Assembly (NCBI GenBank): GCA_020629635.1
Contig: JAHDCX010000006.1
Location: forward strand, 92,012-156,011
DNA length: 64,000 nucleotides
Direction: 5' to 3'
Source: Acidimicrobiales bacterium
GTDB lineage: Bacteria; Actinomycetota; Acidimicrobiia; Acidimicrobiales; SHLQ01
In this document: one piece after another, positions 10,964-50,600 of the stretch
Numbering within the stretch: the stretch's first letter is position 1
Layout: every line of letters begins with the position of its first letter
Notes under the pieces: model-generated
Told to the model about the DNA's origin: nothing
What the model saw: only the letters and a program-made list of their open reading frames with translations
Database searches by the model: none
Position numbers and translations under genes: made by a program

Positions 10964-10966
10964 TTG

Positions 10967-10984
10967 GGGGTCAGGCTTGACCCC
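10967..10984. repeat. Hairpin GGGGTCA-GGCT-TGACCCC in the 28-nt fhs-metF spacer
   Basis: 7-bp perfect stem. Shares the GGGGTCA/TGACCCC core with the 1552-1632 inverted repeat. Confidence 0.5.
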
Positions 10985-10991
10985 ACGGTGG

Positions 10992-31310: not shown

Positions 31311-31408
31311 GGATACTCCTTTGCGCACAGCGGTGTGCGGTGCGTTCGGGGCGTCAATGCCACCGAGGCCACGTCGGGTTCCATGAATTCGAAACTTTTT
31401 CCGCGAAG

Positions 31409-31972
31409 ATGTCGCCGGTGCCGGCTGAGCAGGATTCGGACAACATCGCCTCCGGCGTGGCCATCGACCTCACGGTCGGGGAGCAGTCGGTGGACCGTGA
31501 CTTCGATGCGTTCTTTCGCAGTCATCGAGACGAGATCGCTCGTGCGCTGGCGTTCACGGTCGGCTCGACGCAGCTGGCGGAGGACGCGGTCGACGAGGCG
31601 ATGGCCCGCGCCTTCCAGCGATGGAACGTCGTGGGCCAATACGAGAGCCCGGCGGGGTGGGTGTATCGCACAGCCCTCAACTGGGCGCGCTCCTGGCGGC
31701 GCTCGGCGTTTCGCCGCGCTCGACGCGAGGAGCGAGTCGCTCGCCGGGATCGCCCGATCGAAGGGTCGCCGGACGATCGTCCCGATCTGCAGCGGGCGTT
31801 GCAGGGCTTGTCGATCGACCAGCGGGCCGTGGTGGTGCTTCGTCACTACTGCGATTGGTCCGTGACCGAGACTGCAGATGCCCTTGGCGTTTCGGAGGGG
31901 ACCGTGAAGAGTCGGACCGCCCGGGCGCTGGATGCATTGCGCGTCATACTTCAGGACGAGGGGATCACCTGA
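31409..31972 (+). CDS. ECF-type RNA polymerase sigma factor
   Basis: Start ATG 31409. Region 2 (DAVDEAMARAFQRW...GWVYRTALN) and region 4 (LSIDQRAVVVLRHYCDWSVTETADALGVSEGTVKSRTARAL). Confidence 0.85.
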   Translation: MSPVPAEQDSDNIASGVAIDLTVGEQSVDRDFDAFFRSHRDEIARALAFTVGSTQLAEDAVDEAMARAFQRWNVVGQYESPAGWVYRTALNWARSWRRSAFRRARREERVARRDRPIEGSPDDRPDLQRALQGLSIDQRAVVVLRHYCDWSVTETADALGVSEGTVKSRTARALDALRVILQDEGIT

Positions 31973-33321: not shown

Positions 33322-33437
33322 GTCCGATCGGCTGAGCCCCCTATTCTCGCCGGCCGTCACCCCCAGGGTGACCTCTCCGCTCTCCAATATCACTCGCGGT
33401 GGTATCTTGGCGTCGAGGGCACTCGGGAGGCGTCGAA

Positions 33438-35222: not shown

Positions 35223-35246
35223 GGTGATATATCAGCCGTGTATCAG
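35223..35246. promoter_or_regulatory. GntR-type operator box copy 3: GGTGATATATCAGCCGTGTATCAG
   Basis: Ends 18 nt upstream of the etfB ATG (35265). Identical (inverted) to copy 2. Confidence 0.6.
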
Positions 35247-35264
35247 AGCGAGCAGGAGCCGCAG

Positions 35265-36038
35265 ATGCGCATTCTCTGTTTGGTGAAGCGAGTCCCCGCA
35301 CCGGGCGCCCGCATCAACATCACCGAAGACGAACAGTACGTCGACGACAAGAACCTCGGACATGCCGTCTCCCCGCACGAGGAGTGTGGCGTGGAGGCTG
35401 CGGTGCAGCTGGTCGAGAAGCACGGGGGAGAGGCCACTGTGTTGTCGATGGGCGGCGCCGAGTCCGAAGAGCAGCTTCGGGCCGCCGTGTCGGTCGGCAT
35501 CGCCAAGATGGTGCTCGTGCCCACCGACGGCTCGCCGATGGACCCGCAACAGACCGCCGCCGCGCTCGTCGAAGCGATCCGCAATCTCGAAGAGGCCGAT
35601 GGCGCCTTCGATTTGATCATCTTCGGCAACGAGTCGGCCGATCAGGGCGGCTTCCAGGTGGGTATTCGCATCGCCCATGCGCTGGGCCGTCCGATGGTGA
35701 ATGGCATCAAGGGACTCGACGTCGACGGTGCGGCTGAGGGCCACATCCTCGCGAACCGGGAGATCGATTCGGGTGTTGAGGTGTACGAACTCCCGATGCC
35801 TGCATGCGTGGGCGTGAAGGAGGGCATCAACCTGCCTCGCTACCCGACGATGAAGGGCCGCCTCGCCTCGAAGAAGGCCGAGTTGTCCACCGTCGACGCC
35901 GCCGCCGAGGCTGGCGGTCAGGCGCAGGTGAAGCTCAAGTCGCCGCCCGAGGTTGTCAACGAAACCGTGATCCTGGGCAACGGCCCAGAGGCTGCACCCG
36001 CAGTCGTGGATCTTCTCGAAGAACTGGGGGTCATGTGA
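35265..36038 (+). CDS. etfB: Electron transfer flavoprotein beta subunit
   Basis: Start ATG 35265 (MRILCLVKRVP) with AGGAG 6 nt upstream. Typical ETF-beta motifs (NESADQGG). Confidence 0.9.
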   Translation: MRILCLVKRVPAPGARINITEDEQYVDDKNLGHAVSPHEECGVEAAVQLVEKHGGEATVLSMGGAESEEQLRAAVSVGIAKMVLVPTDGSPMDPQQTAAALVEAIRNLEEADGAFDLIIFGNESADQGGFQVGIRIAHALGRPMVNGIKGLDVDGAAEGHILANREIDSGVEVYELPMPACVGVKEGINLPRYPTMKGRLASKKAELSTVDAAAEAGGQAQVKLKSPPEVVNETVILGNGPEAAPAVVDLLEELGVM

Positions 36039-36988
36039 TGACTGTCCTCGTGATCATCGAACACGACCGGGGCAATGTGCCCGAAGCCGCATTCGAGGCG
36101 CTCACCGCCGCCCGCCAGTTCGGCCTGCCGGTCGAGGCTGCCGTCACCGGCGAAGGCGCTGCGGATGCCGCCGCGTCGCTTGGGGCCTACGGTGCCGAGA
36201 CCATTCATCACGCCACGGCCGACGCCGTCGGCGATTACAGCCCCGAAGCCTGGGGTCAGGCGCTGGCCGGGGTGGTCGAGGCGACGTCGCCGTCGATCGT
36301 GCTGTCGGTGGGCACCGACCGGGGCAACGAACTGATGGCCCAGATCGCCGCACGCATGGATCTGCCGTTCGTCGCCAACTGTGTGGAGGTGTCCGACGAC
36401 GCGTCGTCGATGACCCGTTCGCAATGGGGTGGCGCGCTCCACGAGGAGACGACCCTCGACGCCGACACCAAGCTGCTGTCCTTCGCCCCGCACGCCGTGG
36501 AGGCCACCGAGTCTGCTGCGGTCGGCACCGTGGTCGATGTGGCCGTCGACGTCGACGAGAGCCTTGCCCGCACGATGATCAAGGACCGTGTCGTGCTGAG
36601 CGAAGGCATCACGCTTTCGACCGCGCCCGTCGTGGTGTCTGGCGGCCGTGCCGTCGGATCCGAAGAAGCCTTCGCCCCGCTCGAAGAGCTCGCTGGCGAG
36701 CTCGGCGGCAAGGTGGGGTGCAGCCGTGCGGTGACCAACAACGGTTGGCGTCCGCACAGCGATCAGGTCGGCCAGACGGGCACCCGGATCGCGCCGACGA
36801 TCTACATCGCGTCGGGCATCTCCGGGGCCACCCAGCACTGGGTGGGCGCCATGGGCTCGAAGAACATCCTGGCGATCAACACCGACCCCGAAGCCAACAT
36901 GGTCGTCAAAGCTGGCTGGGCCGTCCTCGGCGACCTCCACGAAGTCATCCCCGCCATCACCGAAGAAGTCCGCAAGCGCAAGGGCTGA
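36038..36988 (+). CDS. etfA: Electron transfer flavoprotein alpha subunit
   Basis: Start overlaps the etfB stop (TGATG). FAD-binding C-terminal motif YIASGISGATQHWVGA. Confidence 0.9.
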   Translation: MTVLVIIEHDRGNVPEAAFEALTAARQFGLPVEAAVTGEGAADAAASLGAYGAETIHHATADAVGDYSPEAWGQALAGVVEATSPSIVLSVGTDRGNELMAQIAARMDLPFVANCVEVSDDASSMTRSQWGGALHEETTLDADTKLLSFAPHAVEATESAAVGTVVDVAVDVDESLARTMIKDRVVLSEGITLSTAPVVVSGGRAVGSEEAFAPLEELAGELGGKVGCSRAVTNNGWRPHSDQVGQTGTRIAPTIYIASGISGATQHWVGAMGSKNILAINTDPEANMVVKAGWAVLGDLHEVIPAITEEVRKRKG

Positions 36989-37040
36989 CCTTCGGTTACT
37001 TGCCCGAAGGCCGCAGGTTCAAATCCTGCTCCCGCCACCA
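36989..37040 (+). other. Orphan tRNA 3' fragment (long hairpin + T-arm + acceptor 3' strand + CCA); likely att-site remnant
   Basis: GCAGG-TTCAAAT-CCTGC T-arm (37013-37029), TCCCGCC-A-CCA (37030-37040). It is preceded by a 7-bp hairpin (36989-37010) that could be a class-II variable arm. There is no matching 5' acceptor strand (GGCGGGA) upstream, because the etfA stop abuts it directly. Confidence 0.5.
37026..37040. repeat. 15-bp target-site duplication, left copy (CTGCTCCCGCCACCA)
   Basis: Identical 15-mer at 38324-38338, immediately flanking the IS ends. Confidence 0.8.
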
Positions 37041-38323
37041 TGTGATGTCTCAGGACATCGGAAACCCTCGAACCCCCGGGTTCGGGGGTTTCTCATGTTT
37101 TGAAGCGGGGTTGGTAGCCGACGTCGGGGTTGAGGGTGAGGTGTCGGATGAGCTCTCCGGTGGCCTTGTTGACGACTCGGATATCGAGGTTGTCGATGAT
37201 GAGTATGACGGGTGTTTGTTTGAGCGAACGTCCGAGGCTGATGTGGTGCATTCGGCCGGCGCGGCGGAGGGAGACGGCGCCGGTTTTGTCGACGCGGTCG
37301 TGGCGGATCCGGTAGTGGTTTCCGGCGCCGTTGTTGCCGGGTTGGTCTTTGGGGAGTCGCTGGTAGGCGACGGCGGGTGGGACTTTCCCGATGGCGGTGT
37401 GAGCACGCCGGTGGTTGTAGAGGTGGACGAACTCGTCAAGAAGGGTTTGGAGTTCGGCGAGGGTTTTGGCGGGTGGTCGGGCGGTGGTCCATCTCTTGAG
37501 GGTTTGTTGGAAGCGTTCGACTTTGCCGGTTGTGGTGGGATGGTTCGGCCGGGTGTGTTTGTGGGTGATGCCGAGGTCGGCGAGGCGGGTTTCGAGTTGG
37601 TTGCGGCCGCCTGGGTAGCCGGCGAAGCGGACCGTGTAGACGAGGCCGTTGTCGGTGAGCACCGATGCTGGAAACCCGTGTGTCTCAGCGGTTTTGTTGA
37701 AGGTGTCGCGGACGATGTCACCGGTGACACGACGGTGGGCTGATACGTGGAGGGCGTATCTGGAGTGGTCGTCGAGCCAGGTGATGGTTTCGGTGTCGGT
37801 GCCGTCAGCGAGCCAGATGTGGGTGAAGTCTGATTGCCAGGTTTCGTTCGGCAGCGCTGCTTCAAAGCGGATGTAGGACGACTTGGGCCGCTTCTTGGGT
37901 GCGGGTTCGACCAGTCCGGCAGCGATGAGTCGACGGCGGATCGTGGACACCGACACTGCGATCCCATGAGTGTTTTGGAGGTGCCATTGGATCGTGATCG
38001 GCCCGGCGTCCAACCCGTCGGCGGTGAGTTGTTCGCGCAGGTTCACGATGTGATCGGTTACGACATCGGGAACCTGATTCGGCGACGTCTGTGGGCGCCG
38101 CGACCGGGGTTCATACGCGGCGTCGCCGTCCGCCCGATAGCGGGCCATCAGTTTCGAGACCCAGCTGCGAGACACCCCGAACCGTCTCGCCGCTTCAGCC
38201 TGCGAGATCCTCTCCACCGTGACCGCTGTGATGATCGCTCGAGCCTTCGACATCACCCACGATGCCAACCCACTTGTTTCCTATGTCCTGAACAACCTGT
38301 TTCCGATGTCCTGAACCACAACA
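37041..38323 (-). mobile_element. IS481-family insertion sequence (1,283 bp)
   Basis: Ends begin TGT. Imperfect 25-bp inverted repeats match 21/25 (TGTGATGTCTCAGGACATCGGAAAC vs TGTTGTGGTTCAGGACATCGGAAAC). Single DDE transposase ORF. 15-bp direct repeats flank the element. Confidence 0.85.
37093..38268 (-). CDS. IS481-family DDE transposase (rve integrase core)
   Basis: N-terminal HTH (ISQAEAARRFGVSRSWVSKL). ETWQSDFTHI (D), VLTDNGLVYT (D), TTGKVERFQQTLK (E). Confidence 0.9.
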   Translation of the reverse strand: MASWVMSKARAIITAVTVERISQAEAARRFGVSRSWVSKLMARYRADGDAAYEPRSRRPQTSPNQVPDVVTDHIVNLREQLTADGLDAGPITIQWHLQNTHGIAVSVSTIRRRLIAAGLVEPAPKKRPKSSYIRFEAALPNETWQSDFTHIWLADGTDTETITWLDDHSRYALHVSAHRRVTGDIVRDTFNKTAETHGFPASVLTDNGLVYTVRFAGYPGGRNQLETRLADLGITHKHTRPNHPTTTGKVERFQQTLKRWTTARPPAKTLAELQTLLDEFVHLYNHRRAHTAIGKVPPAVAYQRLPKDQPGNNGAGNHYRIRHDRVDKTGAVSLRRAGRMHHISLGRSLKQTPVILIIDNLDIRVVNKATGELIRHLTLNPDVGYQPRFKT

Positions 38324-38338
38324 CTGCTCCCGCCACCA
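38324..38338. repeat. 15-bp target-site duplication, right copy (CTGCTCCCGCCACCA)
   Basis: See left copy at 37026-37040. Confidence 0.8.
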
Positions 38339-38345
38339 AGCGAAA

Positions 38346-38373
38346 GGCCCGGAAACTCAACAGTTTCCGGTCC
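38346..38373. terminator. Hairpin CCGGAAAC-TCAACA-GTTTCCGG with T-rich flanks on both strands (bidirectional terminator)
   Basis: 8-bp perfect stem at 38349-38356/38363-38370. Followed by CCTTGTCGTTGT on the plus strand and by TTTCGCTT on the minus strand, downstream of the TIR gene. Confidence 0.5.
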
Positions 38374-38431
38374 TTGTCGTTGTCTGGTGCCGGACGGCGA
38401 TGTACCAGGACGGGACCATGCCAAACCGGTG

Positions 38432-39550
38432 TCAAACCTCCGGTCCTGGTCGGGGACGGCTCAACACCCGAGCGATTTCGTCAGCAGCACCGGCAGAGTC
38501 CTCAAACCAGTCGATCGATTGGATGTCCCGAAGCGTCTCTCCCGCGCCGATGTCGAGATCGGGGATCGTGCAGTCGTTCAAGCGGACGGGTATGAACCAC
38601 GGCTGGTTGTGCGGACGCTGCCTGATCTCCTCGACTGCAACTGTCAGCTCCTCGTAGACGTAAGACCTGTCGCGTTTCTCAAGCTCTTTGGAGAAGCAGG
38701 CGATGAAGCCGCCCCCCGTCGAGATTGCTTGCCTAATCTCTCGTTTCCAACGACTTCCGGCCTCCAGTTGCTCACGGTCAATCCAGGTTTCGAGTCCCGC
38801 CTTCTTGAGGTCGTCCTTGAGCCGACCGACTTCGCCAGAGTTTTCGTGGACGTAGCTCAAGAAGGTGGGCGGCTTCATTGGGGTCCTGTCTTCGAGGCGT
38901 GCAAGCCGGGTCACCGCAGCTCGTTCGGGCTTGGCACTCGAAGTTGGTGCTTTGAAGCTGGGAAGCCCGAGGTTGTCTTTCTCGGCTTGGGCCGAGGCTT
39001 GCTTGGCCTGGATCGCCACGAGTCGTGATCGGACTGTCGTCTCAACGCCCTCGTTCCAAGTGGCCAGCTCAGTGTTGGACTTGGCGATGAGTTCGCGGAT
39101 AGCGACCACGCGGCGGTCGAGCTCTTCCTTTGTGTTTGGGGCCATGTCTAAGCGAAATGTGATTGCGTTCGCTCGTTTGTCGTATGACGTCCCGTTCACA
39201 TCGGGACCACCACCACCGCCCGGTCGGGCCACCAACAGAGCTGGATCGCCCTTCAGCACGGGGAGAAAGATATCGACAGTCTCGATGTCGTGGAAATGGC
39301 CCCGTGAATCGCCACATCGAAATCTGGTGCAGGGCACCCTGAGGCGGGCGGGCCCATCTGCCCGTGCAGGTTCGCCCACTAGGATCTCGGACTGTTGAAG
39401 CTCCGCAGTAACGGCGGCGACTCGATCAGCCAGTTCGTCCTGGGTGATGTCAGTTTCGGCCTTGATCGCGTTCTCAAGACGCCCACACAATAGGTCCCTG
39501 AGCAGGACTCTGGCGCCGGGCTTCGACCAATCGTATTCGAGAATCTCCAC
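38432..39550 (-). CDS. TIR-domain protein with unknown N-terminal domain of about 230 aa
   Basis: C-terminal TIR pattern: TFLSYVHENSGEVGRLKDDLKKAGLETWIDREQLEAGSRWKREIRQAISTGGGFIACFSKE...SYVYEELTVA. GTG start at 39550, 9 nt after the integrase stop. Confidence 0.8.
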   Translation of the reverse strand: MEILEYDWSKPGARVLLRDLLCGRLENAIKAETDITQDELADRVAAVTAELQQSEILVGEPARADGPARLRVPCTRFRCGDSRGHFHDIETVDIFLPVLKGDPALLVARPGGGGGPDVNGTSYDKRANAITFRLDMAPNTKEELDRRVVAIRELIAKSNTELATWNEGVETTVRSRLVAIQAKQASAQAEKDNLGLPSFKAPTSSAKPERAAVTRLARLEDRTPMKPPTFLSYVHENSGEVGRLKDDLKKAGLETWIDREQLEAGSRWKREIRQAISTGGGFIACFSKELEKRDRSYVYEELTVAVEEIRQRPHNQPWFIPVRLNDCTIPDLDIGAGETLRDIQSIDWFEDSAGAADEIARVLSRPRPGPEV

Positions 39551-39559
39551 CCAGGGAGT

Positions 39560-40688
39560 CTACGGGTCCTGCCTGTTCGCACTTACCAGATTGGCCACCG
39601 CGAGCGCTGCGTCGGCCTGCATTCCCGGGATCACCTTCGGCGGCACGCCAGCCGGCAGCGCGATCGTGGCGTGGGTGTGTCGGAGGTCGTGAAGTCGAAT
39701 CTTCGGTAGCTCGCTCCTCGCGATCAGCCGCTCGAACGCCTGGGTGTATGTCTGCGGGTGAAGCGGTTGGCCGTCCTCTTTGCAGAACACGAGGTCGCCG
39801 TCTTGGTAGTCCGAACCCCACTCGGTTCGCTCGTCCAGCTGGCGCCGCCGATGTCCTCGGAGGTGTTCGATCGTTCTCGGGTCGAGATCGATCACCCGGG
39901 CCTGATGGTTCTTGGGTCTCGACCCCACGAGTTCGTAGGCGACTGACACGAGCGCCTGCCGCACATGGATCCGTCCTGAGCCGAGGTCAACGTCGGCCCA
40001 CCGAAGGCCAAGCACCTCGCCACGGCGCATGCCGGTGATTGCGGATACGTGCCAGGCCGTCTCGAGGCGGTGTCCTTCGACGAGGCGTAGGAAGCAGCGC
40101 AGCTGTTCGGGTGTCCAGAACCGATAGTTCTGCTGTCGCACGCGCTCGCGGCCGGGGCGGCTTCGCCCGCTCCGCAACGTTGGTTTCGACCAGCCCGGCA
40201 TCAAATGCGTCCGCAAGTGCCTTGTGCAACATCGTGTGGATGTACCTACCGCACGGCCTCGCGCTGAGCCCGCCCGGCCCGTTGCGACGACCGTTGGTCC
40301 ACAGCTCCGCGTAGAGCGAGTTCAGCTGGCCGGGCCCGATGTCACGGATGCTTCGGCCACCGAGCGCTGGAAGCACGTGATGGCCCATGTTCCGGCGGTA
40401 CGACTCGAACGTGCTGGGCTTCACCTGCGTCTCAACGGTCGGTAGCCACTGGTCCTCGACCCACTCCCGAATCGTCAGTTTCGTCGGCTCGGTGTATGTG
40501 CCGTCGTGCAGGTCGCCGACGATCTTCGTTCGAGCGCCCTCCGCCTCCTTGCGGGTGAGGAAACCGCCATGTCACTTCTGGCGACGTTTGCCGTTCGCGT
40601 CTCGGCCAAGATCGACGACGACGTACCAATTGACAGTCTCCTTGCCGGCCTTCGTGGTGTGGGTGCGCTTGCGGATGTGCCCCTGCAT
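39560..40688 (-). pseudogene. Tyrosine recombinase (phage-type integrase) pseudogene
   Basis: N-terminus MQGHIRKRTHTTKAGKETVNWYVVVDLG...RRQK then in-frame TGA at 40572-40574 where W is expected. Frameshift near 40140-40160 between ...AERAKPPRP and ...RFWTPEQL. The C-terminus jumps from HDLRHTHATIALPAGVPPKV directly to IPGMQADAA, so the segment with the catalytic His/Tyr is deleted. Confidence 0.8.
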
Positions 40689-40698
40689 GCGTGCCGCC

Positions 40699-40907
40699 TC
40701 ATGCGGCCGGCGTCGAAACGCCGAGCCACTCCAGCAACGCCGGAACGGGAACGATCACGCGCCGACCGAGCTTCCGGCAGGGGATCTCGCCGCGCCGGGC
40801 GGCTGTGCGCCCAAGACCGAGCAGCGATGCGACTTCCTCTGCGGAGAGGTGAGTCGGGTCTCGATGTCGTCGAGGCCAAGCGGGTATGAGCGCGTACGCT
40901 CGTTCAT
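40699..40907 (-). pseudogene. Excisionase-family (MerR-like HTH) gene, apparently frameshifted
   Basis: ATG 40907 opens MNERTRSYPLGLDDIETRL. The typical Xis HTH (LSAEEVASLLGLGRTAARRGEIPCRKLGRRVIVPVPALLEWL) continues in another frame and stops at 40699-40701. Confidence 0.45.
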
Positions 40908-41035
40908 GTCGGAACCTCTTATGAGGGTTCTGGCCAGGCCCCGGGGGTGTTGGCGCACCGCCGGGGCCACTTATTGTCGACGGAAAAGACTACCGATAGG
41001 CGAGACGTTGTCAACGTGTATAGACTCAATTCATC

Positions 41036-41242
41036 ATGGGAAGACTGGTCGACCTTGACGATTTGATTGACGTCGGTGAAGTTGCCGAGATCCTCGGCCT
41101 GGCGCACAAGAACAGCGTCACCACGTACATGCGTCGATACGACGACTTCCCGGAGCCAGCGATCGAATTCGCGGACGGCAAGTGCCGGACCTGGTTGCGG
41201 CAAGACGTTGAAGGCTGGCGTGCTACGCGTGAGGACGGCTAG
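41036..41242 (+). CDS. Small HTH DNA-binding protein (AlpA/excisionase-like)
   Basis: 68 aa. IDVGEVAEILGLAHKNSVTTYMRRYDDFPEP...WLRQDVEGW. Confidence 0.6.
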   Translation: MGRLVDLDDLIDVGEVAEILGLAHKNSVTTYMRRYDDFPEPAIEFADGKCRTWLRQDVEGWRATREDG

Positions 41243-41291
41243 TGGATTTGGTCAGATCCAAACAACGCGTCGCAGACCACGTCGAGGCACG

Positions 41292-42116
41292 GTGCGAGTG
41301 ATTTCGAGAACGACACGGTCGTTCAAGAGGTGTTCGGCGACGAGATTGCCTAGCCCTGGCTTCCGAGCCGCCACCGTTTCGGAGCTCGCCCGGAGTCGGC
41401 TGGCAGACTACATCGACGTCGCAGCTTCGAGGTTGAAGAGAGCCTCAAAGCGGCTCAGACCCCAAGTGGCCCGCTCGGCCGAAAGGTCCCAGGAGTTTTG
41501 GGAGTCGCTGATCCCCAGGATCAAGGACGACGTCGTCTACCTCCACTCGACTCGGCATAGGTTCGAATTGCTTGTCGAGGCCGCCAGAAATCCTGAGATC
41601 CCCGAGCCAAACCACGTCATGGAGTACGTAGCGGGCCTCTACGCGAACACGGTGCTCGTGGGGTTGCGCCGACAGGCGGACAAAGATGATCGAACAGCGA
41701 GTCTCCGAGTGCTCCTCCGAGACCTGCGACAGCATCCCAAACATGCGACGCGTGATTGGTACGTCGCAAAGTATCCGGCACACCTCGAGGACATGGCGAA
41801 CAGCACCTTCGATAGGTTCACTACAGAAGTCGGAGACCAGTACATCAGCCGCAAAGAAGTGGAGCAGGACCTAGCGCGACTTGGGTCGGTGACGAAAAAG
41901 CTGACCCACGTGGTGAACAACCAGATCGCACATCTCAATCAGGCTCCCGAAGGGGGTGAGGCCACGTTTGCGGATGTATCGGCTGCGCTGAAGGCATACG
42001 AAGATCTCGTGCAGCGCTACTTCTTGCTCGTCGACGGCGCAGCGCTCACAGACGCGACGCCAACGCTGCAGTTCGATTTCCTGCGACCGCTGCAAGTGCC
42101 GTGGGTCGAGCGCTAG
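41292..42116 (+). CDS. Hypothetical helical protein, possibly AbiU2-type HEPN-like
   Basis: Codon-plausible part of ORF 41067..42116. No ATG, so a GTG start at 41292/41298 is assumed. C-terminal ...KKLTHVVNNQIAHLN resembles the xxxAH end of HEPN Rx4-6H motifs, but the Arg is missing. Confidence 0.4.
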   Translation: MRVISRTTRSFKRCSATRLPSPGFRAATVSELARSRLADYIDVAASRLKRASKRLRPQVARSAERSQEFWESLIPRIKDDVVYLHSTRHRFELLVEAARNPEIPEPNHVMEYVAGLYANTVLVGLRRQADKDDRTASLRVLLRDLRQHPKHATRDWYVAKYPAHLEDMANSTFDRFTTEVGDQYISRKEVEQDLARLGSVTKKLTHVVNNQIAHLNQAPEGGEATFADVSAALKAYEDLVQRYFLLVDGAALTDATPTLQFDFLRPLQVPWVER

Positions 42117-42426
42117 CCCGGAGGTGTCAAACCTGTGTCAAGCGAACCGAGTGCAACCGACGAGCCTTTCCCGTAAGGGTCCGTACGGGAGGCCTGTGAA
42201 AACCGCACGATTCCGGTGGTTCCCGAAGGCTTTGGCACCCACCCGGACCACCGTACGTAACTCATAAACCGAAGGTCGCCGGGAGCGTCGGTAGGACGTG
42301 AGCGACGCGCAATGCGACAACTTCCATCACCCGCCAACCCAGCTCGACGCCGGCTCGATATCGAACGCCACCGTCGGATCAGATACAACGGCGATCACAG
42401 AGTCATCAACTTGACGGGAGCCAGGG

Positions 42427-43023
42427 GTGTCGCGGTTGGATCTAAAGGCTTGTCTCGAAAGAGGCACACGTCATTTCTTGGAGGCGTGGTACGGAGTTGA
42501 CCTGCTCGGAGCTGACGCTCGGTGGGGCTCACAGCCAAAGCCCTTGCGCGAATGGTGGGGCTGGCAAGAGGCATCCGACGTGGCGTTCATCCACCAGAAC
42601 CATCTGCTGAGCGAGCTTCGCAGCCGAGATCAGTTCACAGTCTTCTACGTCGAAAACCAGGCTGTCGTGCAGTGGGCGTATGAAACTGCTAGCGATGACC
42701 CCGACCCGGAGGTCTTTGAGCGGACCAATGCCGACCAGTCGGCTTGGGAACCCCTGGGTATGCCGATGTCCCAGTTCTTGCTCCTGATCGCCTGTTTCGA
42801 AGCGGCCATCGGCGCGGAGCACGCGCTATGGGTCAACGACCCGACTGCAGAGCACGTCGACCTGTTGACCGACGGTCTTGCGCTGGCCGACGGAGCAGCT
42901 TTCTGGGAGATGCAGGTCTATGTCGGCGACGAGGCAGTCCTTACGCTCCACTCCAACACCGTCGCGATCTATTCCTCACCGGATCCCTCAGTGATCGAAG
43001 GTAAACGAGACAGCCTGTCGTAG
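42427..43023 (+). CDS. Hypothetical protein (Trp-rich, possibly SMI1/KNR4 (SUKH)-like)
   Basis: GTG start. 198 aa. No catalytic motif recognised. Lower-GC codon usage. Confidence 0.4.
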   Translation: MSRLDLKACLERGTRHFLEAWYGVDLLGADARWGSQPKPLREWWGWQEASDVAFIHQNHLLSELRSRDQFTVFYVENQAVVQWAYETASDDPDPEVFERTNADQSAWEPLGMPMSQFLLLIACFEAAIGAEHALWVNDPTAEHVDLLTDGLALADGAAFWEMQVYVGDEAVLTLHSNTVAIYSSPDPSVIEGKRDSLS

Positions 43024-43271
43024 GCGCCGGCTTGCCCAGTGATTGCGTTGCTAGAGCACCGGTGGAGGATCGTTGTCAGCCCGCTGATGGCGGGTGGCCA
43101 GCCCCGAAGTAACGGCACTTGCTCGAGTAGGGAGTTGACCTGATTGCCTGTCTCGCTCAGTGAGTGATCGCTACAGATTTGTGGCTCTTCCGGGGTTGTT
43201 CGAGCCGACCGTCGATGCCTGGCGAGGGGTAGATCGCTGAGGGTCGGCGGGAGGTAGGGGTGTGAGGACCG

Positions 43272-44648
43272 TTAGTCGAGGCTCACTCGCCATCTTCCGT
43301 CAGGGGCGCCTTTGCTTGGTATCGCTGGCGGTGAGAGAAGGGGAACCGACGGCAGCTCTTCTGTGGCTACCTCGGGGGCCCGCTCGCGTCGACGTGGAGC
43401 GCGGGCTTGGTAGGCGACCAGGTCCTGCAAGACGTCTCCGTAGAAGGACTCGATCGCGTCCACGACAGATTGGGAGAATCCAGGCTTCTTCCCCGCCTTG
43501 CGGTTTTGACCCATCTCACTTCGCGCCACAAGTCGGAACTTCACGGGGTCCCTCTTTTGATCGCTCAGGAGCACGGCTGGATCAGTGCGCACCGCTTCGA
43601 GGGTGGCAGCCGATCCGCTGCGAGCATTCTTCGGAAAGGCCTCGACAACAAGACCGGCTGGCGCGTCCTTGAGCTGTCGGGTGAGCCATCCGATCCTTCC
43701 CTTCGCACCCTTGTCTCCCGGTGCCTCGAATGAGGTGGACACCAAGATCTGTCGAGCCTTCAGGTCGACATCGATCTCGAGATCCGAAATGGTGTCGGGG
43801 ATTCGGAGCGCTCCGCTGAGTTTGCCCTCGATAGCAAGCTCCTCTACGAACGATTTCGTCCGAAGTGAGGGATCAGCGACATGCGCTCGAGGGACGACTT
43901 CCTGTACGTCTTCGCCGATGTCAGATCCCAGCTTCAAGCTTGCGTAGCCAAGGAGCTGGTCCCAGCGTTGCGCGATATCGACCACTGCATCGTCACGCTT
44001 GTTCAGCGTGCCGTTGCGTCCGCCATCCCGAACCTCCACCCAGTTCTCACCCATGTCGTCGAAGCCCACTGCACCGGATGCGGGATGCTCGAGGTAACGG
44101 ATGAGCTCGCCAAGGATCCATGTTTGCTCTGGGTCATCGATCCCACGGTGCACCTTTTCCATCACCGCCGTCGTCAGTACCCGAGTCCAGCTGATGTGAT
44201 GAAGCGCCACCTTCGAGTTGGCTCGCAGCTTCAGTCCCGAAGGATGTGCTCCCGGCGAGGCTGGAATCTCATTCGAGATACTGAGCACGCAGTCGTACCC
44301 ATTCTCCTTTGCCACATCGACATACCGCTCGAGCTGCTCCGAATCGAGCTTCGATGAACCAGACTTCACCTCAACAAGTCCCACCCACGGCTTTTGACTG
44401 CCGAACGTCACGCGAATCAATCCGTCAGGCCTGACAGTGGTTCCGGTCTTCAGCTTGAAGGTCGTTTCGATGAACGTCTCGACTGTGGCCTTGCCGGCCT
44501 TGCTTGCTCCGAGCGGCGCTAGCAGAGCTATCGAGAACGGCCGCACGACGGAGAGCACCGCCAGCAGCGCTGAAGTCGCTCGCTGCTCGGCTTCCCGGTC
44601 CCCTGAGATCCCTGCGACCGAGATCAAACGCGCTTCTTGCCAACTCAT
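43272..44648 (-). CDS. PD-(D/E)xK nuclease-fold protein with large C-terminal extension
   Basis: Start ATG 44648 (MSWQEARL). RPDGLIRV...WVGLVEVKSGSSKLDSEQLERYV fits the D...(D/E)xK core. About 300 aa of unknown C-terminal domain. Confidence 0.55.
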   Translation of the reverse strand: MSWQEARLISVAGISGDREAEQRATSALLAVLSVVRPFSIALLAPLGASKAGKATVETFIETTFKLKTGTTVRPDGLIRVTFGSQKPWVGLVEVKSGSSKLDSEQLERYVDVAKENGYDCVLSISNEIPASPGAHPSGLKLRANSKVALHHISWTRVLTTAVMEKVHRGIDDPEQTWILGELIRYLEHPASGAVGFDDMGENWVEVRDGGRNGTLNKRDDAVVDIAQRWDQLLGYASLKLGSDIGEDVQEVVPRAHVADPSLRTKSFVEELAIEGKLSGALRIPDTISDLEIDVDLKARQILVSTSFEAPGDKGAKGRIGWLTRQLKDAPAGLVVEAFPKNARSGSAATLEAVRTDPAVLLSDQKRDPVKFRLVARSEMGQNRKAGKKPGFSQSVVDAIESFYGDVLQDLVAYQARAPRRRERAPEVATEELPSVPLLSPPAIPSKGAPDGRWRVSLD

Positions 44649-44834
44649 GATGCCCCCGTGGCCCCCGCCGCTGCTGAATCGCAACCTACCGCGTTGTGTT
44701 GGTCAGTGACGTCAATCCAGCGAGCAGGTGCCCGCTCGAAACAATCGCCAGGCCGCGTTCGCCCAGCCATCGCGAGCAACGTCGACGAAAGCTCGTTCAC
44801 CCCGCATGCGGCGAAGCGGCAGCACAGGACACCG

Positions 44835-45689
44835 TCACGAATCGTCCTCGATCGAGGTCACGTGACGTAGCCACAGGCCGCCGCCACGGAGGCTTCCGGG
44901 GAGGTAGCTGCGGTGTCCCAGAAGCTGGCGGACTCGTGGCGAGCGGTCGGCGAGCGAGCCCAAGGGATGGTCGAGCACGATCGCTTCTTCGGGTGTGAGC
45001 CAACCGGCCACGAAGCTCAGGTGCATCGCCCGACGCCATCGGGCGGTCGTGCGGTTGGCGCCCCCGCCATGGAACACGTGGCCGGAGTACACCAGTGCGT
45101 CTCCCGGGTCGAGCTCGGCCGGCACGGTCTCAACCTCGGTCCGGTAGTCGAGCTTCTCCGTCCGGTGGCTGCCGGGCACGACGCGGGTCGCGCCCAACTC
45201 GTCGGTCACGTCGTCGAGGCCGATCATCGCCGAGATTGTCACCTCCGGTGTGTCGGGCCACGTCCGGTTGATGAACTCCCACCAGTTGTCCGCGTCGCGA
45301 TGCAGGACCTGGGCGGGTTCGCCCGGCCCGATGTACATCACCTGCGCCGTGTTCAACCAGTACGAGCCGCACGTGGGCAACAACACGGCGTCCGCAATGG
45401 CGGCGTACCGCTCGTTGTCGAGCATGTCGAAAAACGCGTCGGTGAGCAGGCCAAGGCTCGAGAAGCGGATCGTGTTGGCACCGACGAACTCCTTGCCTTC
45501 GTCGCCCATGCCTTGATCCGCGGCTCCGGGTTCCACACCCTGGGCATACGCATCGGCAGCGGCACGGATCTCGTCGATCACCGACCGGTCGAAGAGACCT
45601 TCGATGATCAGCGCGCCGTCCTCTCGTAGCGCCGCCAGCTGCACATCGAGTTCGGCGTCGGCAGCCAGTCGTTGCAGTGAACGTGTCAC
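44835..45689 (-). CDS. Phytanoyl-CoA dioxygenase (PhyH) family Fe(II)/2OG oxygenase
   Basis: HRDADNWW (HxD), GATRVVPGSH, GHVFHGGGAN, R..MHLSF. Confidence 0.8.
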   Translation of the reverse strand: MTRSLQRLAADAELDVQLAALREDGALIIEGLFDRSVIDEIRAAADAYAQGVEPGAADQGMGDEGKEFVGANTIRFSSLGLLTDAFFDMLDNERYAAIADAVLLPTCGSYWLNTAQVMYIGPGEPAQVLHRDADNWWEFINRTWPDTPEVTISAMIGLDDVTDELGATRVVPGSHRTEKLDYRTEVETVPAELDPGDALVYSGHVFHGGGANRTTARWRRAMHLSFVAGWLTPEEAIVLDHPLGSLADRSPRVRQLLGHRSYLPGSLRGGGLWLRHVTSIEDDS

Positions 45690-45810: not shown

Positions 45811-46224
45811 ATGGCCATCACACCTGCCGAACTCGAACTCGTCCGAAATGAGCTCGACGCACGAATCACCGCTGTTACTGTCGAGCACGTGAGTATGGCG
45901 CAAGCGATCGGATCCTACAGTGAGCGATTCACCGCGCTGGATGCCCGTTTCGACGCAATGGACTCGCGCATCGATGCTGTCGAGCTTCGACTCGACTTCG
46001 TCGTCCAGGACATGGAACGCCGGTTCACCGAAGTCGACCGACGCTTTGACGGTGTCGACCGTCGACTCGATGCCCTCGACCGACGCATGGAGCGGCTCGA
46101 AGACCGGATGGTCACGCTTGATCGCAAGATCGATCTGCGGTTCGGTTGGCAGACGTTCCTCATGGCCGGACTTGCGGTGCTCGTGCTCTTCGACGACGCG
46201 ATCACTACCGCCCTCGGGCTCTGA
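45811..46224 (+). CDS. Coiled-coil protein with C-terminal TM anchor (repetitive DxRFDxxDxR heptad-like repeats)
   Basis: Start ATG 45811 (MAITPAELELV). LDARFDAMDSRIDAVELRLDFVVQDMERRFTEVDRRFDGVDRRLDALDRRMERLEDRM. C-terminal TM segment FLMAGLAVLVLF. Confidence 0.55.
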   Translation: MAITPAELELVRNELDARITAVTVEHVSMAQAIGSYSERFTALDARFDAMDSRIDAVELRLDFVVQDMERRFTEVDRRFDGVDRRLDALDRRMERLEDRMVTLDRKIDLRFGWQTFLMAGLAVLVLFDDAITTALGL

Positions 46225-46387: not shown

Positions 46388-46523
46388 CTGCCGCTGCGCT
46401 GTCGCCGGTTACTGTCGAACGCATGCACGTCGGAGACGCACACGAACGTTGGGAGTCGGCCGAGGGATCGACGGGAGCGCTCGAGGAGACTGAAGGTCTG
46501 CCGGGCGTCGCCGATTGACCACG

Positions 46524-47693
46524 ATGCAGCCCGCAGCGCCGACCGACGCTCTGCCGACGCCGACGTACCACCGCGACCTCGCCGAGCACTTCGAGCAGGT
46601 CGAACCCGAACTGTGGTCGTGGTTTGGGGAGTCGTCGGCGCTCGCCGAACGACGCGACGAGGCCGCCGAGCTCGCACTCCTCAAGTCGGCGTACCGACTC
46701 GACGGTGGGCCACACGCCGTGCTCGTGGGCTTCGCCACGATGCTCGCGACCCGATTCGGTATCGGCGAACCGATCGTGTTGTACCAAGCACTCGGCGACA
46801 ACGACCGCAACGCCCGAGTGTTCCGGCTCAACAGCCAGGTCCACGTCGTCTTCTCCGGCGACCTGCTCGACCTGCTCGACACCGACGAGCTCCACGCCGT
46901 CCTCGCCCACGAACTCGCCCACATCGCGCTGTGGAAGCGAGACGGCGGCCGGTACTTCGCCCTCGACCACCTGGTCGAACGCCTCGCAGGCGAGATCGCG
47001 GCGCCCGACGCGCTCGTCGAGACGGCGCGACGTCTTCGCTTGCACACCGAAGTGTGGGCCGACGCCATGGCCGTCGACGCTGTCCAGAGCGTTGCCGCCA
47101 CCGTGTCGACGATCGTCAAGGTCAACACCGGTCTTCGACACGTCGACCCCGACGCCTACCTGCGGCAGGCCACCCAGATCTTGGAAATGGATGGGGGAGC
47201 GAGCCAGGCATGGTCCCACCCCGAGCTGCACATCCGGGTCGCCTGTATCGAAGCTCGAGCACGGTCCAGTGCCGATGGGGTCATCGACGAGCTGATCAAC
47301 GGCCCTGACGACCTCGACCGCATCGACCTGCTCGGACAAGCCCGGGTCCAAGCCGTCAGCGCACGTGTGCTCAACAGCGGCGCAGCGGTCGCCAACCGCT
47401 CCGAGGCCGTCGCCCAGTACCTGGCGGGCTATCCAGAGCTCGCGGTCAGCGCTGCCGGAGCGGTCGCCAACGGCGAGCTCATTGACGCGGAGCCGTCCAT
47501 CCGATGGTTGGCCGCCGCGTTGCTGGTCGATCTCACCCTCGCCGACGGTGGAACGGACACGCTCGACGATGTCCGAGCGCTCGCACGTGAGGCCGAGCGT
47601 CAAGGCGTGGCCATCGAGTTCGACAAGATTCTCGCCAAAGCGACCGAACAGACCCCCGCTCAGGTGCGCGCGTTTCGGGGCGCCACACGATGA
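46524..47693 (+). CDS. M48-like zinc metallopeptidase, soluble, with helical C-terminal domain
   Basis: HExxH in LHAVLAHELAHIALWKRDGG. No TM helices. C-terminal LAAALLVDLTLADGGTDTLDDVRAL looks TerB-like. The stop overlaps the start of the helicase gene (ATGA 47690-47693). TTG 46515 or ATG 46524 as start. Confidence 0.7.
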   Translation: MQPAAPTDALPTPTYHRDLAEHFEQVEPELWSWFGESSALAERRDEAAELALLKSAYRLDGGPHAVLVGFATMLATRFGIGEPIVLYQALGDNDRNARVFRLNSQVHVVFSGDLLDLLDTDELHAVLAHELAHIALWKRDGGRYFALDHLVERLAGEIAAPDALVETARRLRLHTEVWADAMAVDAVQSVAATVSTIVKVNTGLRHVDPDAYLRQATQILEMDGGASQAWSHPELHIRVACIEARARSSADGVIDELINGPDDLDRIDLLGQARVQAVSARVLNSGAAVANRSEAVAQYLAGYPELAVSAAGAVANGELIDAEPSIRWLAAALLVDLTLADGGTDTLDDVRALAREAERQGVAIEFDKILAKATEQTPAQVRAFRGATR

Positions 47694-50600
47694 CCTTCGC
47701 CCGCCTGCTGTCCGAAGTACTCACGGACGAGCTCCCGCGCACCGGAGATGTCCTTGCGGTCGGTATGCCGCTGCTCCGTCACATCGATTCGCTCCATCGC
47801 CACGGTCAGGTCACCGGCGCGTCTGGCGTTTCCGCGCTCGACTACGACGGAACCCGCCTTCACGTCAGCGGGTCACAGCCGGCAGGAGAGGACTCGAATC
47901 GGCCGGCGGTCGAGCTCGCCACCGCCCATCTCGCCTCGAGCGGAGCACAACTCTGGAGCCATCGCCAACACGACGATTCCGGCGGCGGGTGGGGGAGAAC
48001 GTCGAGCCTCGATGTCTTCGATCCCGATGACGGTGTGCCGCCGCGACCGATGTTCGTCGCCGGGTACCGGGTGTGGGAACAGCTCCACGGACACCACGAT
48101 CCCCTCACCGACGTGGCCCTGTGCGGTCTGTGGCTCTGCAGCTTCGCCTTCGGTCTCGATCTCGACACTCCCGACGGCATCGATGCACTGGCCCTCGACC
48201 ATCGCCACCCGAGCCGGCTGAACCCGCACCTGCATCCCGTTGTTGCGTCCACCCTCGTGTCGATGATCGCCCCAGACCGATCGCTTCGGCCCCGCGAGCT
48301 CGGCCACGTCATCACCCGACTCGAACACCACCGGGACGTGCCCGCAGACCTCGACCTCGCCGCCGCGTACGAGTCCGAGACCGACTGGCGCCGAGCCGTT
48401 CTGACGACGCTTCGAGATCGCGTGTTTGACACGACACGCCGCAATCGCGAGCTGTACTACCGGCCGACCGCCTCGAGCGTGTCGCTCACCGAGTCGTCGG
48501 TGCCGCTGATGCTCAACATCGACCGCATCCGCCCCAAGGACCTCCTCACCTGGACATCGCCGTCCAACGACGCACTCCGGAAGGGCAAGACGGTCGACCT
48601 CGCCACCTGGTGCCGATTCGAAGAGACGCCGTATCTCGCGCCAGCGCTCGACAAGCTGATCAGCGCCGAACGAAAGTTTCGTGTCGAGACCGGCCACGGG
48701 CGGCTCCGATGCATCGTCGCCTTTCTGCACTGGCACGACCCCGAGGCCGACGAAGCCGTCACCTCGCCGCTCCTCACGCTGCCGGCCACGCTGACTCGGA
48801 AGAAGGGCCTCGAGACCAGGTATCAGCTCGAGCTCCCCGGCGACGACGCCACCGTGAACCCGATCCTGCGGCACGTGTTCGCCGGCCGGTTCGGCATCGA
48901 CCTCCCCGCACACGTGGGGACCGGTCCGGACGAGATCGCGGCCTTCGCGCAGACGCTCGAAGCGCAGGTCCGAAAGAGCGCACCCGCAGTACAGATCGAA
49001 CTGGTCGACAAACCTCGCATCGACCTGCTTCGTCGCAAGGCCCAGCTCCGGGTCGACAACTACCGCCGACGACGCGCCCGAAACCTCGCATCGGCCGGGC
49101 GATGGCGGCGACAGGACCACAGCTACGAACTCGACGACTGGCGACCCCTCGGCCAAGCGCTCTACGACCGATTCGTCCGAACCGCCGACCTCCCGCTCCG
49201 CGACGTCGCTGGCGCCGTACCTCGACCGCGTCCGCAGGCGCTTTCGGCGCCGACAGACGCGGCACCCCCGCCCCCGGGTTTGCCAAGCGAAGAGCGAACC
49301 GCCGATATCTACTCGATCACCGGAGCAGACGCGTCGGCCGACCGTTGGCAAGTCGACCTTTGCAGCGTCTCGCTCGCCGTGCTGGGCTCGCGTCGTACGA
49401 CGCTCTCGCGCGACTACGACGACGTGCTCCGAGCCGAGAGCACCGTCACCGTCGAAGACACTCCGTTCGAACATCTCTTCCGGCCCGAACCGTCACCGGC
49501 GCCCGCCGCAGAGACCGAGCCGATGCGGATCGATCAGCGGCTCGTGCTCCCCGCCGACGATGCCCAGGCGCGGGCGGTCCAGCGCGCCGTGCGCGGCGAC
49601 TCGTTCATCATCCAAGGCCCGCCCGGCACCGGGAAGAGCCAGACGATCACCAACGTGATCGCTGCGCTCGCGGCGGCGGGCAAACGGGTGCTCTTCGTCT
49701 GTGAGAAGCGGGCGGCGATCGATGTGGTTGCGCATCGCCTCAACCAGGTCGGCCTCAGCGACCTCACCGCGTTGATTCACGACTCCCAGCTCGACCGAAA
49801 GGACTTCGTCAAACAGCTCGGCGCCACCTACCACTCGTGGCTGGACGACCGGCCGGACGAACCGGCCGACGGCCAACCGCCTGCTCCATCGGAGACACAG
49901 GTGCGACGCAACCAGCTCCTCGCCCGCTTCGGCGAGGCCGTCCGCCCGCTCGACGCGATGAACGGAGAGCTCGGCGCAAGCCTCGGCGGCGGACTCACCG
50001 TCGCCCAAGCGATCGAACGTGTGAGCCTCCTGTCCGAGGCTGGCAGCGACGCGGCGGTCCCGCTCGCACCAGACGAGTGGGTGTCGCTGCGTCCACGCCT
50101 CGACCGTGTCGCCGACGCGCTTGCCGCGGCCGGGTTCACCGGTCCGCTGGCAAGCCACGCTGCGCTGCGTGTTCGGCCCGGGTATCTGGGCGCCGATGCC
50201 GTGCAGAGCGCACGCAACGTCGGCGCTGCGCTCACCGACGCGGTCGGCGGGGTCGTCCCGACTCTCGACCTCGCCGCAATCACGACCTCGGGCAGCTGGC
50301 AGCCCACGCTCCTCGCCGCTGCCGAAGCGGGTGGCCTCGCCGCCCTCGACCCGACTCACCCACAACACCTCGATCTCCGGGCCGCTGCGCAACGCCAAAC
50401 CGAGCTCGACGCCTTCGTGGCCGAGACCGGCACGGTTCTGACGCGTTGGGTGACCCCGCTTTCTGCGGCCGACACTGCGGCGGGCCTTGACGTTGCCCGA
50501 AGCAAAGAAGGGTCCATCTTCAAGGTCTTCAATGGACGGTGGCGAGCACTGCGAAAGACCGTCGAGGCCGCCTACGACTTCGGTCAGCACCAGGTGCGTC

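Follow-up and report, generated by a model that had tools for sequence, protein, structure and literature searches.

The DNA analysed here, the window, is a 64,000-nucleotide stretch of contig JAHDCX010000006.1 (positions 92,012 to 156,011) from an Acidimicrobiales bacterium, and our subject is a small integrative element that directly follows its etfA gene. The genome has 65% GC and a GC at third codon positions (GC3) near 0.81. The EtfA protein of the window is 87% identical to that of an Acidimicrobiales metagenome-assembled genome (MAG; L007); in the other genomes that the search returned, nearly all Acidimicrobiia MAGs, the identity of EtfA is 55–84% (labels such as L003, L007 and L088 denote the numbered related loci or genomes that were compared with the window). 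Bounded by two attachment (att) sites at about 36989 and 42279, the element would measure about 5.3 kb, or ~4 kb without an insertion sequence (IS) that it has acquired, and it encloses only a TIR gene, a dead integrase gene (int), a dead excisionase gene (xis), a small helix-turn-helix (HTH) gene and an AbiU2-like gene. The features, with protein lengths in amino acids (aa), are:

36038–36988, etfA
36989–37040, plus strand, attL, the etfA terminator hairpin joined to a tRNA-fMet-like core
37041–38323, minus strand, IS481-family insertion sequence, inserted in the att core
38339–38431, no strand, P' arm, the element arm between att core and TIR gene
38432–39550, minus strand, 372-aa TIR-domain protein, cargo slot 1 (Pfam TIR_2, E=2.4e-20)
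39560–40688, minus strand, tyrosine integrase pseudogene, with Phage_integrase and Phage_int_SAM_3 on its fragments
about 40699–40907, minus strand, excisionase (HTH_17) pseudogene, with lesions relative to the L088 backbone
41036–41242, plus strand, intact 68-aa HTH DNA-binding protein of the AlpA/excisionase-regulator type, divergent from xis-int
41298–42116, plus strand, 272-aa HEPN_AbiU2-family protein, cargo slot 2 (Pfam PF18734)
42117–42279, plus strand, attR, a P arm (42117–42258) followed by a truncated core (42261–42279)

The backbone of the element consists of the HTH gene and, diverging from it, xis and int, with cargo on either side, in the same order and orientation as in related loci; at the nucleotide level it is 86% identical to L088. 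The integrase remnant matches Pfam Phage_integrase (1.3e-18) and is 62–77% identical to the intact 372-aa integrase of L003. Read against that homologue (tblastn) and against L088 (blastn), it carries three lesions: W17 is replaced by a stop codon (TGG to TGA, 40572–40574), the frame shifts between 40125 and 40183, and 20 residues (ISERLGHENPAFTLKQYAHV) are deleted near 39635, with loss of the GH...Y segment that holds the catalytic Tyr. The excisionase remnant, which still matches HTH_17 (30.4 bits), has a frameshifting 1-nt deletion near 40848 and a 12-nt deletion within the HTH near 40805. The small HTH protein is intact and matches PHROG 597 ('DNA binding protein', 1e-9) and PHROG 66 ('excisionase and transcriptional regulator'). 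All five disruptive lesions thus fall within int and xis (1.34 kb) and none within the TIR, HTH and AbiU2-like genes (2.15 kb). Were lesions to strike at random in proportion to length, such a distribution would have a probability of roughly 0.384^5 ≈ 0.008; it fits selection on the cargo and is no proof of it.

With the L003 integrase as probe, we collected a family of at least 80 metagenome loci. Across these, tblastn finds three genes conserved and nothing else, namely the integrase, xis (69 loci) and the small HTH gene (52 of the 80, with copies 41–86% identical and in the same position), always arranged HTH(−)/xis(+)/int(+). In many loci an intact initiator-type tRNA-Met(CAT) gene (CGCGGGG...TCGGGCTCATAACCCGA...) abuts int, downstream and on the opposite strand, and in the remaining loci its place is taken by a ~43-nt core copy that begins with CTCATAA at the anticodon loop (CTCATAACCCGAAGGTCGCAGGTTCAAATCC...CCGCCA). 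Both att cores can be seen in L093, L095, L121, L134 and L148, where the elements measure 7–13 kb. Because tRNA-fMet genes or core copies lie beside int and the cores occur in pairs, the family appears to consist of tRNA-fMet-specific integrative elements whose attachment site begins at the anticodon loop and extends to the CCA end; for tyrosine integrases that target tRNA genes, a crossover at or close to that loop is reportedly the classical arrangement. The window copy appears, by its backbone and att sequences, to be a decayed, dead member of this family. In L157, an att-core fragment lies just after int (2004–2043) and an intact tRNA-fMet 7.4 kb further on (9393–9432), a layout that suggests tandem element arrays at the tRNA-fMet site.

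Each element has two variable cargo slots, slot 1 between int and attL and slot 2 between HTH and attR. The slot-1 ORFs (open reading frames; n=102) fall into 87 clusters and the slot-2 ORFs (n=96) into 86. In related elements the slots are filled mostly with genes recognisable as predicted defence genes. Slot 1 holds a DUF1883-TIR protein that scores 227 bits (226.9) on PADLOC PDC-S66 and matches ThsB (L087), AriA/GajA/OLD-like ABC ATPases (L099, L106), a HEPN-like protein with Abi_C (L095), a YaaC-like protein (L097), an nSTAND NTPase (L118), PLD-helicase-DUF3427 proteins (L120, L134) or a McrC-like DUF2357-PDDEXK_7 protein (L132). Slot 2 holds restriction-modification (R-M) systems of type I (L088) and type III (L162), an Eco57I-type methylase with AIPR (L095), a C5 methylase with an NgoMIV-type enzyme (L148), ImmA/IrrE with DUF4411 (L134) or DUF5131 (L096); R-M types I, II, IIG and III all occur across the cargo of the related elements. 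No replication, transfer/conjugation or capsid genes were found in the three att-bounded elements scanned (L095, L134, L148), where several cargo ORFs had no Pfam match. A prophage or satellite nature was rejected, no phage gene having been found and the integrases of IMG/VR being at most 32% identical. A protein of ~180 aa directly follows the integrase in six elements, mostly on the opposite strand (L115 4177–4743, L127 2106–2654, L133 2294–2842, L147 1007–1573, L152 6253–6786 and L153 9127–9756); the two members scanned (L115, L152) gave no Pfam or PADLOC match.

At the left end of the window copy, tRNA-derived sequence is joined to a perfect hairpin, CCTTCGG-TTACTTGC-CCGAAGG, that begins 1 nt after the etfA stop codon (left arm 36989–36995, loop 36996–37003, right arm 37004–37010). 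The attL core (37003–37040) corresponds to the 3' part of an initiator tRNA-fMet, comprising T-arm, acceptor 3' strand and CCA, and agrees with the att-core consensus of the family at 94.7% of 38 nt (E=2e-11), with a single occurrence in the window and none in 100 shuffles. ARAGORN detects no tRNA gene anywhere in the window, and neither it nor Rfam reports one at the junction; the fragment is recognisable only by comparison with family members. The intact tRNA that is usual at the attL of tRNA-targeting elements is not restored here, and the 5' half is absent. An insertion sequence sits at the very end of this core copy and splits the tRNA-derived sequence. Its DDE transposase (37093–38268) scores 253.5 bits on NCBIfam transpos_IS481 (cut-off 224), its 25-nt inverted repeats start with TGT (37041–37065 and 38299–38323), and its 15-bp target duplication, CTGCTCCCGCCACCA, is intact (37026–37040 and 38324–38338). 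Target duplications in the IS481 family range from 4 to 15 bp (ISfinder), and on transposase score, inverted repeats and duplication alike the insertion is a member of that family; it is present once in the window. Behind the core, the P' arm contains a hairpin, GGCCCGGAAAC...GTTTCCGGTCC, and a 'GAAAGGCCC'-like sequence also stands behind the core in related loci.

The right end lies in the gap between the AbiU2-like gene and a Trp-rich ORF. There, a 19-nt core, CTCATAAaCCGAAGGTCGC, on the same strand as the attL core, differs from the family core by one mismatch and is its sole match in the window; 0 of 100 shuffles match at ≤2 mismatches. The adjoining P arm carries the motifs AGCGAACCG, ACCGCACGA and CACCCGGACCACC, which recur at equal distances in the attR arms of six related elements, L095 giving the best alignment: A(A/G)CGAACCG lies at about −115, ACCGCAYGA at about −60, and CACCCGGAC.ACC immediately before TAACTCATAA, as in L095. 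The layout of attR is the P arm, then CTCATAA-CCGAAGG-TCGC, then unrelated DNA, with the core stopping after GGTCGC, and attL and attR have CCGAAGGnCGC in common. Direct repeats derived from the attachment core, a hallmark of tyrosine-recombinase elements, are found on both flanks.

An earlier note, made from the sequence alone, had anticipated much of this. The junction it described between a tRNA fragment and an IS481 copy is real, as the 25-nt inverted repeats and the 15-bp duplication attest; the nonsense codon, frameshift and internal deletion that it saw in the integrase could all be located against the L003 integrase, the frameshift in the excisionase proved to be the 1-nt deletion relative to L088, and the small AlpA-like HTH gene is there and intact. 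Its contrast between dead mobility genes and intact defence-type cargo stands, all lesions lying in int and xis. The TIR, AbiU2-like, Trp-rich and PD-(D/E)xK ORFs that it listed are present and intact with their domain assignments upheld, and its statement that they form no recognisable known system agrees with our searches: PADLOC gives domain-level TIR matches only, and no ThsA, CD-NTase, pAgo or reverse transcriptase (RT) is found.

How did a tRNA-specific element come to lie behind etfA? In its right arm, CCGAAGG, the hairpin has exactly the sequence of the anticodon-stem/variable segment of tRNA-fMet, and ARAGORN finds no tRNA downstream of etfA in eight relatives. Since the hairpin loop (ACTTGC) resembles sequence behind a displaced etfA 3' remnant in L007, the etfA terminator hairpin itself is suggested to be native. 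We propose that the attP of the element would have recombined with this terminator hairpin rather than with a tRNA gene, with crossover within CCGAAGG. A single off-target event of this kind would leave a hairpin joined to the tRNA 3' end at attL and a core ending after GGTCGC at attR, and it is the simplest reading of the att structure. Later, IS481 would have entered attL and int and xis would have decayed through five lesions, locking the element in place. Because the identity between the att sites is short, IS481 sits in attL and int and xis carry the five lesions, excision is now impossible and the element is immobilised.

The odd left junction might also have arisen if the element had integrated normally into a tRNA-fMet gene and a later deletion or rearrangement had taken the 5' half of the tRNA and joined etfA to attL, while attR decayed. 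The family does normally target tRNA-fMet, fragment-only attL sites beside unrelated DNA occur in other members (in L003, for instance, next to a truncated aminotransferase), and to the right of etfA there is no synteny beyond L007. Such a deletion, however, needs an endpoint exactly in the anticodon loop that leaves a perfect 7-bp hairpin 1 nt past the etfA stop codon; moreover, the loop ACTTGC is common to the displaced etfA 3' remnant of L007, beyond GGTCGC the attR core breaks off cleanly and without remains of the T-arm, next to a well-preserved P arm, and no relative has a tRNA near etfA. We regard this course of events, the main rival to off-target integration, as unlikely. A deletion mediated by IS481 was rejected as the cause of the junction, the 15-bp duplication being intact and no second IS copy being present. 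In L007, a 1.2-kb insert with two small ORFs (10951–12232) follows the etfA stop codon. Behind it stands a decayed second copy of the final 67 nt of etfA, and then a gene for a DUF3800 protein. Because L007 also has an insert there, the etfA 3' end would be a recurrent insertion point.

The slot-1 gene of the window encodes a TIR protein with an N-terminal domain (residues 1 to ~135), a long helix (140–193), a disordered linker and a C-terminal TIR domain (229–364). Its TIR profile matches solved NADase TIRs, namely PdTIR, SPARTA TIR-APAZ, AbTIR and SARM1. Residues E300 and E301 are invariant in seven homologues, and the alignment pairs E301 with the Glu of the 'LKEL' motif in TIR-APAZ (E77), which we take to be the catalytic residue. 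On this alignment, the protein appears to carry the conserved catalytic-type Glu of NADase-competent TIRs. Among 5.8e9 protein clusters it has one full-length homologue (P0002, 58% identical), whose gene lies 10 nt downstream of a co-oriented intact integrase in L003 and is followed by a tRNA-like 3' fragment; the arrangement of int and then, after 10 nt, the TIR gene is repeated in the window and in the independent L003 element. The earlier note had proposed to test whether the TIR N-terminal domain co-occurs with the gene families at 41292–44648, and we find no support for such a link: the sole homologue (L003/L004) is linked to an integrase, and both contigs end just past it. Exact-protein look-ups for the TIR and Trp-rich proteins return only 2–4 kb SRA contigs of the same population, with no added context; identical contigs occur in SRR14415273–75.

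The N-terminal region of the TIR protein is nearly an orphan. A phmmer search with residues 1–228 against 1.84e9 representatives returns its own cluster and three weak multi-stretch matches (E 7e-9 to 1e-3), which are taken to be repeat or low-complexity matches, and neither phmmer, an AlphaFold2 (AF2) model nor Foldseek, with TIR matches only, gives a fold or family for this domain. The model (mean predicted local distance difference test, pLDDT, 66) has a small alpha/beta N-terminal domain and then a 50-residue helix. The weak PADLOC PDC-S54/S66 matches on residues 82–277 may stem from the long helix and the first part of the TIR domain and not from homology of a sensor domain; the PDC-S66 match (23.7 bits) spans profile positions 73–200 of 282 and falls short of full length. 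Within an element family whose slots hold defence genes, the protein is most likely a single-gene abortive-infection effector, in which the orphan N-terminal domain, as a putative sensor, and the long helix would control oligomerisation of the TIR NADase.

The slot-2 gene encodes an AbiU2-like protein that scores 29.9 bits on PF18734 (gathering cut-off 26.8; profile positions 51–176 of 193); it has no PADLOC, PHROG or plasmid match and no homologue in any of the 80 related loci. Could the two cargo proteins act together, the TIR protein as signal producer and the HEPN protein as effector? A TIR-plus-effector logic exists in Thoeris, and both genes are intact within one small element. The genes nevertheless occupy different slots on opposite strands, with int, xis and HTH in between; each slot varies independently across the family; no related locus has an AbiU2 homologue, with the L003/L004 contigs ending just past the integrase; and the TIR protein has a large N-terminal domain of its own, like single-gene TIR effectors. 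A Thoeris-like pair is thus scarcely credible, and we infer that the AbiU2-like protein is an independent HEPN-type Abi cargo and not a partner of the TIR protein.

To the right of attR, the low-GC sequence continues into genes that the att sites exclude from the element. These genes, and the neighbours on either side, are:

35238–36038, etfB
42427–43023, plus strand, Trp-rich ORFan of 198 aa with 9 Trp, outside the element
43272–44648, minus strand, stand-alone PD-(D/E)xK protein of 458 aa, outside the element
44835–45689, minus strand, PhyH-family dioxygenase gene with host-like GC
about 45811–46224, plus strand, coiled-coil gene
right of the coiled-coil gene, an M48-like peptidase gene and then a gene for a 1682-aa helicase

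Against a reference set of 30 window genes (GC 0.655±0.015, GC3 0.809±0.027), six genes stand out with z of −2.6 to −4.9 (GC ~0.60, GC3 0.68–0.74): the TIR gene (GC/GC3 0.597/0.676), the small HTH gene (0.599/0.739), the AbiU2-like gene (0.597/0.722), the Trp-rich ORF (0.598/0.714; GC1/2/3 of 0.65/0.43/0.71, coding-like), the PD-(D/E)xK gene (0.601/0.675) and the coiled-coil gene. The integrase remnant (0.654) and the PhyH gene (0.664) have host-like GC. The earlier note was right that this region is richer in AT than its flanks, and had read it as a single island from 38339 to 44800 with one five-gene cargo. Indeed, the TIR, AbiU2-like, Trp-rich and PD-(D/E)xK genes are all low in GC (~0.60) and in GC3, and GC rises sharply at 44.8 kb, as one island of ~38.3–44.8 kb, its four cargo genes possibly acting together, would have it. 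An attR core with the P-arm motifs of the family nonetheless lies at 42117–42279, between the AbiU2-like gene and the Trp-rich ORF. Furthermore, PD-(D/E)xK and coiled-coil genes, both low in GC3, are found downstream of etfA in L007 without int, TIR or AbiU2 genes; homologues of the AbiU2-like, Trp-rich and PD-(D/E)xK proteins occur in 0 of the 80 related elements; and PD-(D/E)xK homologues elsewhere have no conserved neighbour. One large island is thus very unlikely. The att sites instead place the element at ~36989–42279, its left end at the etfA stop codon, with the TIR and AbiU2-like genes as its only cargo, in separate slots, and the Trp-rich and PD-(D/E)xK genes outside.

The latter two genes appear to form an older low-GC accessory patch downstream of etfA and not cargo of the element. 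The PD-(D/E)xK and coiled-coil genes are assigned to the older patch because the same arrangement (with a PD-(D/E)xK homologue 72% identical) and the same low GC3 recur in L007. In the window, the PhyH gene separates these two genes, which adjoin in L007. The coiled-coil protein (45811–46224) is made of repeated D-R-x-D/E heptad-like units with a C-terminal hydrophobic segment, is kept in L007 and matches several PHROGs of unknown function. The Trp-rich ORF finds itself alone among 5.8e9 clusters and has no Pfam (even at E≤1), PADLOC, NCBIfam or PHROG match; a likeness to SUKH/SMI1-type immunity proteins is an impression only, and we do not claim it.

The 458-aa protein has no Pfam, NCBIfam, PADLOC or PHROG match, and a phmmer search against the PDB gave nothing useful. 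Its homologues number at least 3598 and are all without a Pfam domain; the best 120 listed are 50–73% identical, and their named sources are Acidimicrobiia/Actinomycetota MAGs, most being without a source name. Residues D75, E93, K95, Q105 and Y109 are invariant in 44 sequences (D...ExK, Q105xxxY109). The best Foldseek matches of its AF2 model (pLDDT 86.7), though weak, are EcoT38I, MspJI, McrC, BamHI and viral PD-(D/E)xK/Mrr proteins (E 7e-4 to 2e-3). By motif and by the modelled restriction-endonuclease-like fold, the protein is predicted to belong to the PD-(D/E)xK superfamily. The neighbourhoods of its homologues are variable and of the conflict type, with PIN toxins, transposases, HNH, a deaminase and the distal edges of int-PrimPol elements. 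A two-gene system was considered and dropped, there being no conserved neighbour in nine places. Our best guess is a stand-alone nuclease with a part in defence or in mobile-element biology. Plasmids of Rhodococcus and Streptomyces encode 680-aa proteins that have TerD at the N-terminus and consist of the same module in their C-terminal two-thirds; the 458-aa protein aligns along its full length with residues 253–677 of these, the last 425 residues or so, at 40% identity. The TerD-fused genes (L176 6245–8284, L177 6227–8269) have RES/Xre and ThiF-MPN-DUF6602 genes, or polymorphic-toxin genes, as neighbours.

Together, these observations make it likely, in our judgement, that the element is a decayed, integrase-only member of the tRNA-fMet family that integrated off-target at the etfA hairpin and carries two independent defence cargo genes. 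Several points weigh against this account. The right boundary rests on a 19-nt match to the core and on the similarity of the P arm. The earlier note had proposed a comparison with relatives for the right boundary and for an empty site; the synteny with L007 agrees with the att boundary, and no clean empty site emerged from an EtfA search of GTDB genomes, in which only L007 is reasonably close and its region downstream of etfA is rearranged. A fragment-only attL is common in the closest sub-family (L003, L087, L088, L095, L096, L099), where it may reflect tandem arrays, and for the window a genuine integration into the tRNA gene with a later deletion keeps a small probability. In loci without both att sites, ORFs outside the element may have been counted among the 102 and 96 cargo ORFs. 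The N-terminal domain of the TIR protein is poorly modelled (pLDDT 66), and its role as a sensor is conjecture. Finally, where the last helix of the AbiU2-like protein begins and the Rx4-6H motif is expected, the sequence reads NNQIAH and seems to have no Arg; the only Rx4H is RDLRQH at residue 141, ~65 residues upstream of NNQIAH. The protein may be inactive or non-canonical.

Two further regions of the window, outside the element, were noted in passing. In all close relatives an 839-aa gene (27204–29723 in the window) directly adjoins etfB; here the two are kept apart by a 5.5-kb block at 29859–34892 with host-like GC, whose genes specify a CBM_10-repeat protein, an ECF sigma factor, an unassigned 566-aa protein and a beta-propeller protein. 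At 46515–52738, an M48/SprT-like metallopeptidase gene overlaps by 4 nt with the start of the gene for the 1682-aa DUF4011 SF1 helicase, which matches PADLOC PDC-S37 (605 bits), with NCBIfam ProA and Hhe below their cut-offs; this pair, 2 kb to the right of the region that the earlier note described, makes a further defence candidate. A scan of the window for promoters and terminators gave no more sites than expected by chance and was not used.

A dead mini-island with TIR and Abi-type genes is ordinary in itself, and defence genes on integrase-only islands have already been documented. Its value lies in the family: a conserved three-gene backbone with two hypervariable slots makes it possible to propose unannotated slot genes of a little-studied lineage as defence candidates, and the hotspots of P2 and P4 are a precedent for using slots in this way. 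Tentatively, and with more doubt than conviction, we put forward that the HTH-xis-int/tRNA-fMet elements are undescribed, widespread integrase-only 'defence cassette carriers' of high-GC Actinomycetota-like bacteria and, additionally, that the 458-aa PD-(D/E)xK family is a new stand-alone defence nuclease. If the family is indeed undescribed, its two slots would be a platform for discovering new anti-phage genes, such as the integrase-coupled TIR and the unmatched slot ORFs. The window copy would furthermore show, at the level of sequence, how an element can integrate off-target where a terminator hairpin resembles the anticodon arm of a tRNA, which would explain how the element was trapped and then decayed. 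It also presents a TIR effector whose putative sensor domain is essentially without relatives, and, beside the element, a large, well-conserved and unannotated PD-(D/E)xK family tied to TerD.

Compared with known systems, the 458-aa protein differs from the 680-aa plasmid TerD family proteins in having no N-terminal TerD domain. Like lactococcal AbiU/HEPN_AbiU2, the AbiU2-like protein scores above the PF18734 gathering threshold and stands in a defence context beside mobile-element genes; unlike lactococcal AbiU, it has no PADLOC AbiU match, and its candidate motif, NNQIAH, is without the Arg listed as conserved in the HEPN_AbiU2 family motif (Anantharaman et al., 2013, PMC3710099). The TIR protein resembles TIR NADase defence proteins (ThsB, PDC-S66, SPARTA TIR-APAZ and AbTIR) in its C-terminal TIR domain with a conserved Glu, and it occupies the defence slot in which L087 carries a bona fide PDC-S66/ThsB-like TIR. 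It is unlike these systems in having no ThsA, Ago, SAVED, STING or RT partner, and unlike PDC-S66 in its score (23.7 bits versus 227 for L087) and in its N-terminal 228 residues, which have no relative outside their own cluster. Thoeris is matched in the TIR domain only: no ThsA-like gene was found in 36.9–46 kb, and the PADLOC matches are weak ones to the TIR domain.

The closest published concept is that of the integrase-only, defence-carrying mobile islands of E. coli (Hochhauser, Millman & Sorek, 2023, PMC10121019). Like those islands, the present elements are small and chromosomal, have mobility genes of the integrase type only, carry defence cargo and use tRNA-type insertion hotspots. 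Unlike the E. coli islands, the present family has an HTH-xis-int backbone, a tRNA-fMet target and two defined slots, and is found on high-GC metagenome contigs; the window copy, moreover, is dead and lies at a non-tRNA site in an Acidimicrobiales-like host. The elements L095, L134 and L148 differ from P2-like phages and P4-like satellites in having no capsid, replication, helper-exploitation or other phage or satellite genes. The defence hotspots of these phages and satellites (Rousset et al., 2022, PMC9122126) are reportedly alike in plan, with a conserved mobile backbone and fixed positions at which unrelated defence genes are swapped, one of them, as in the present family, beside the integrase and the att end.

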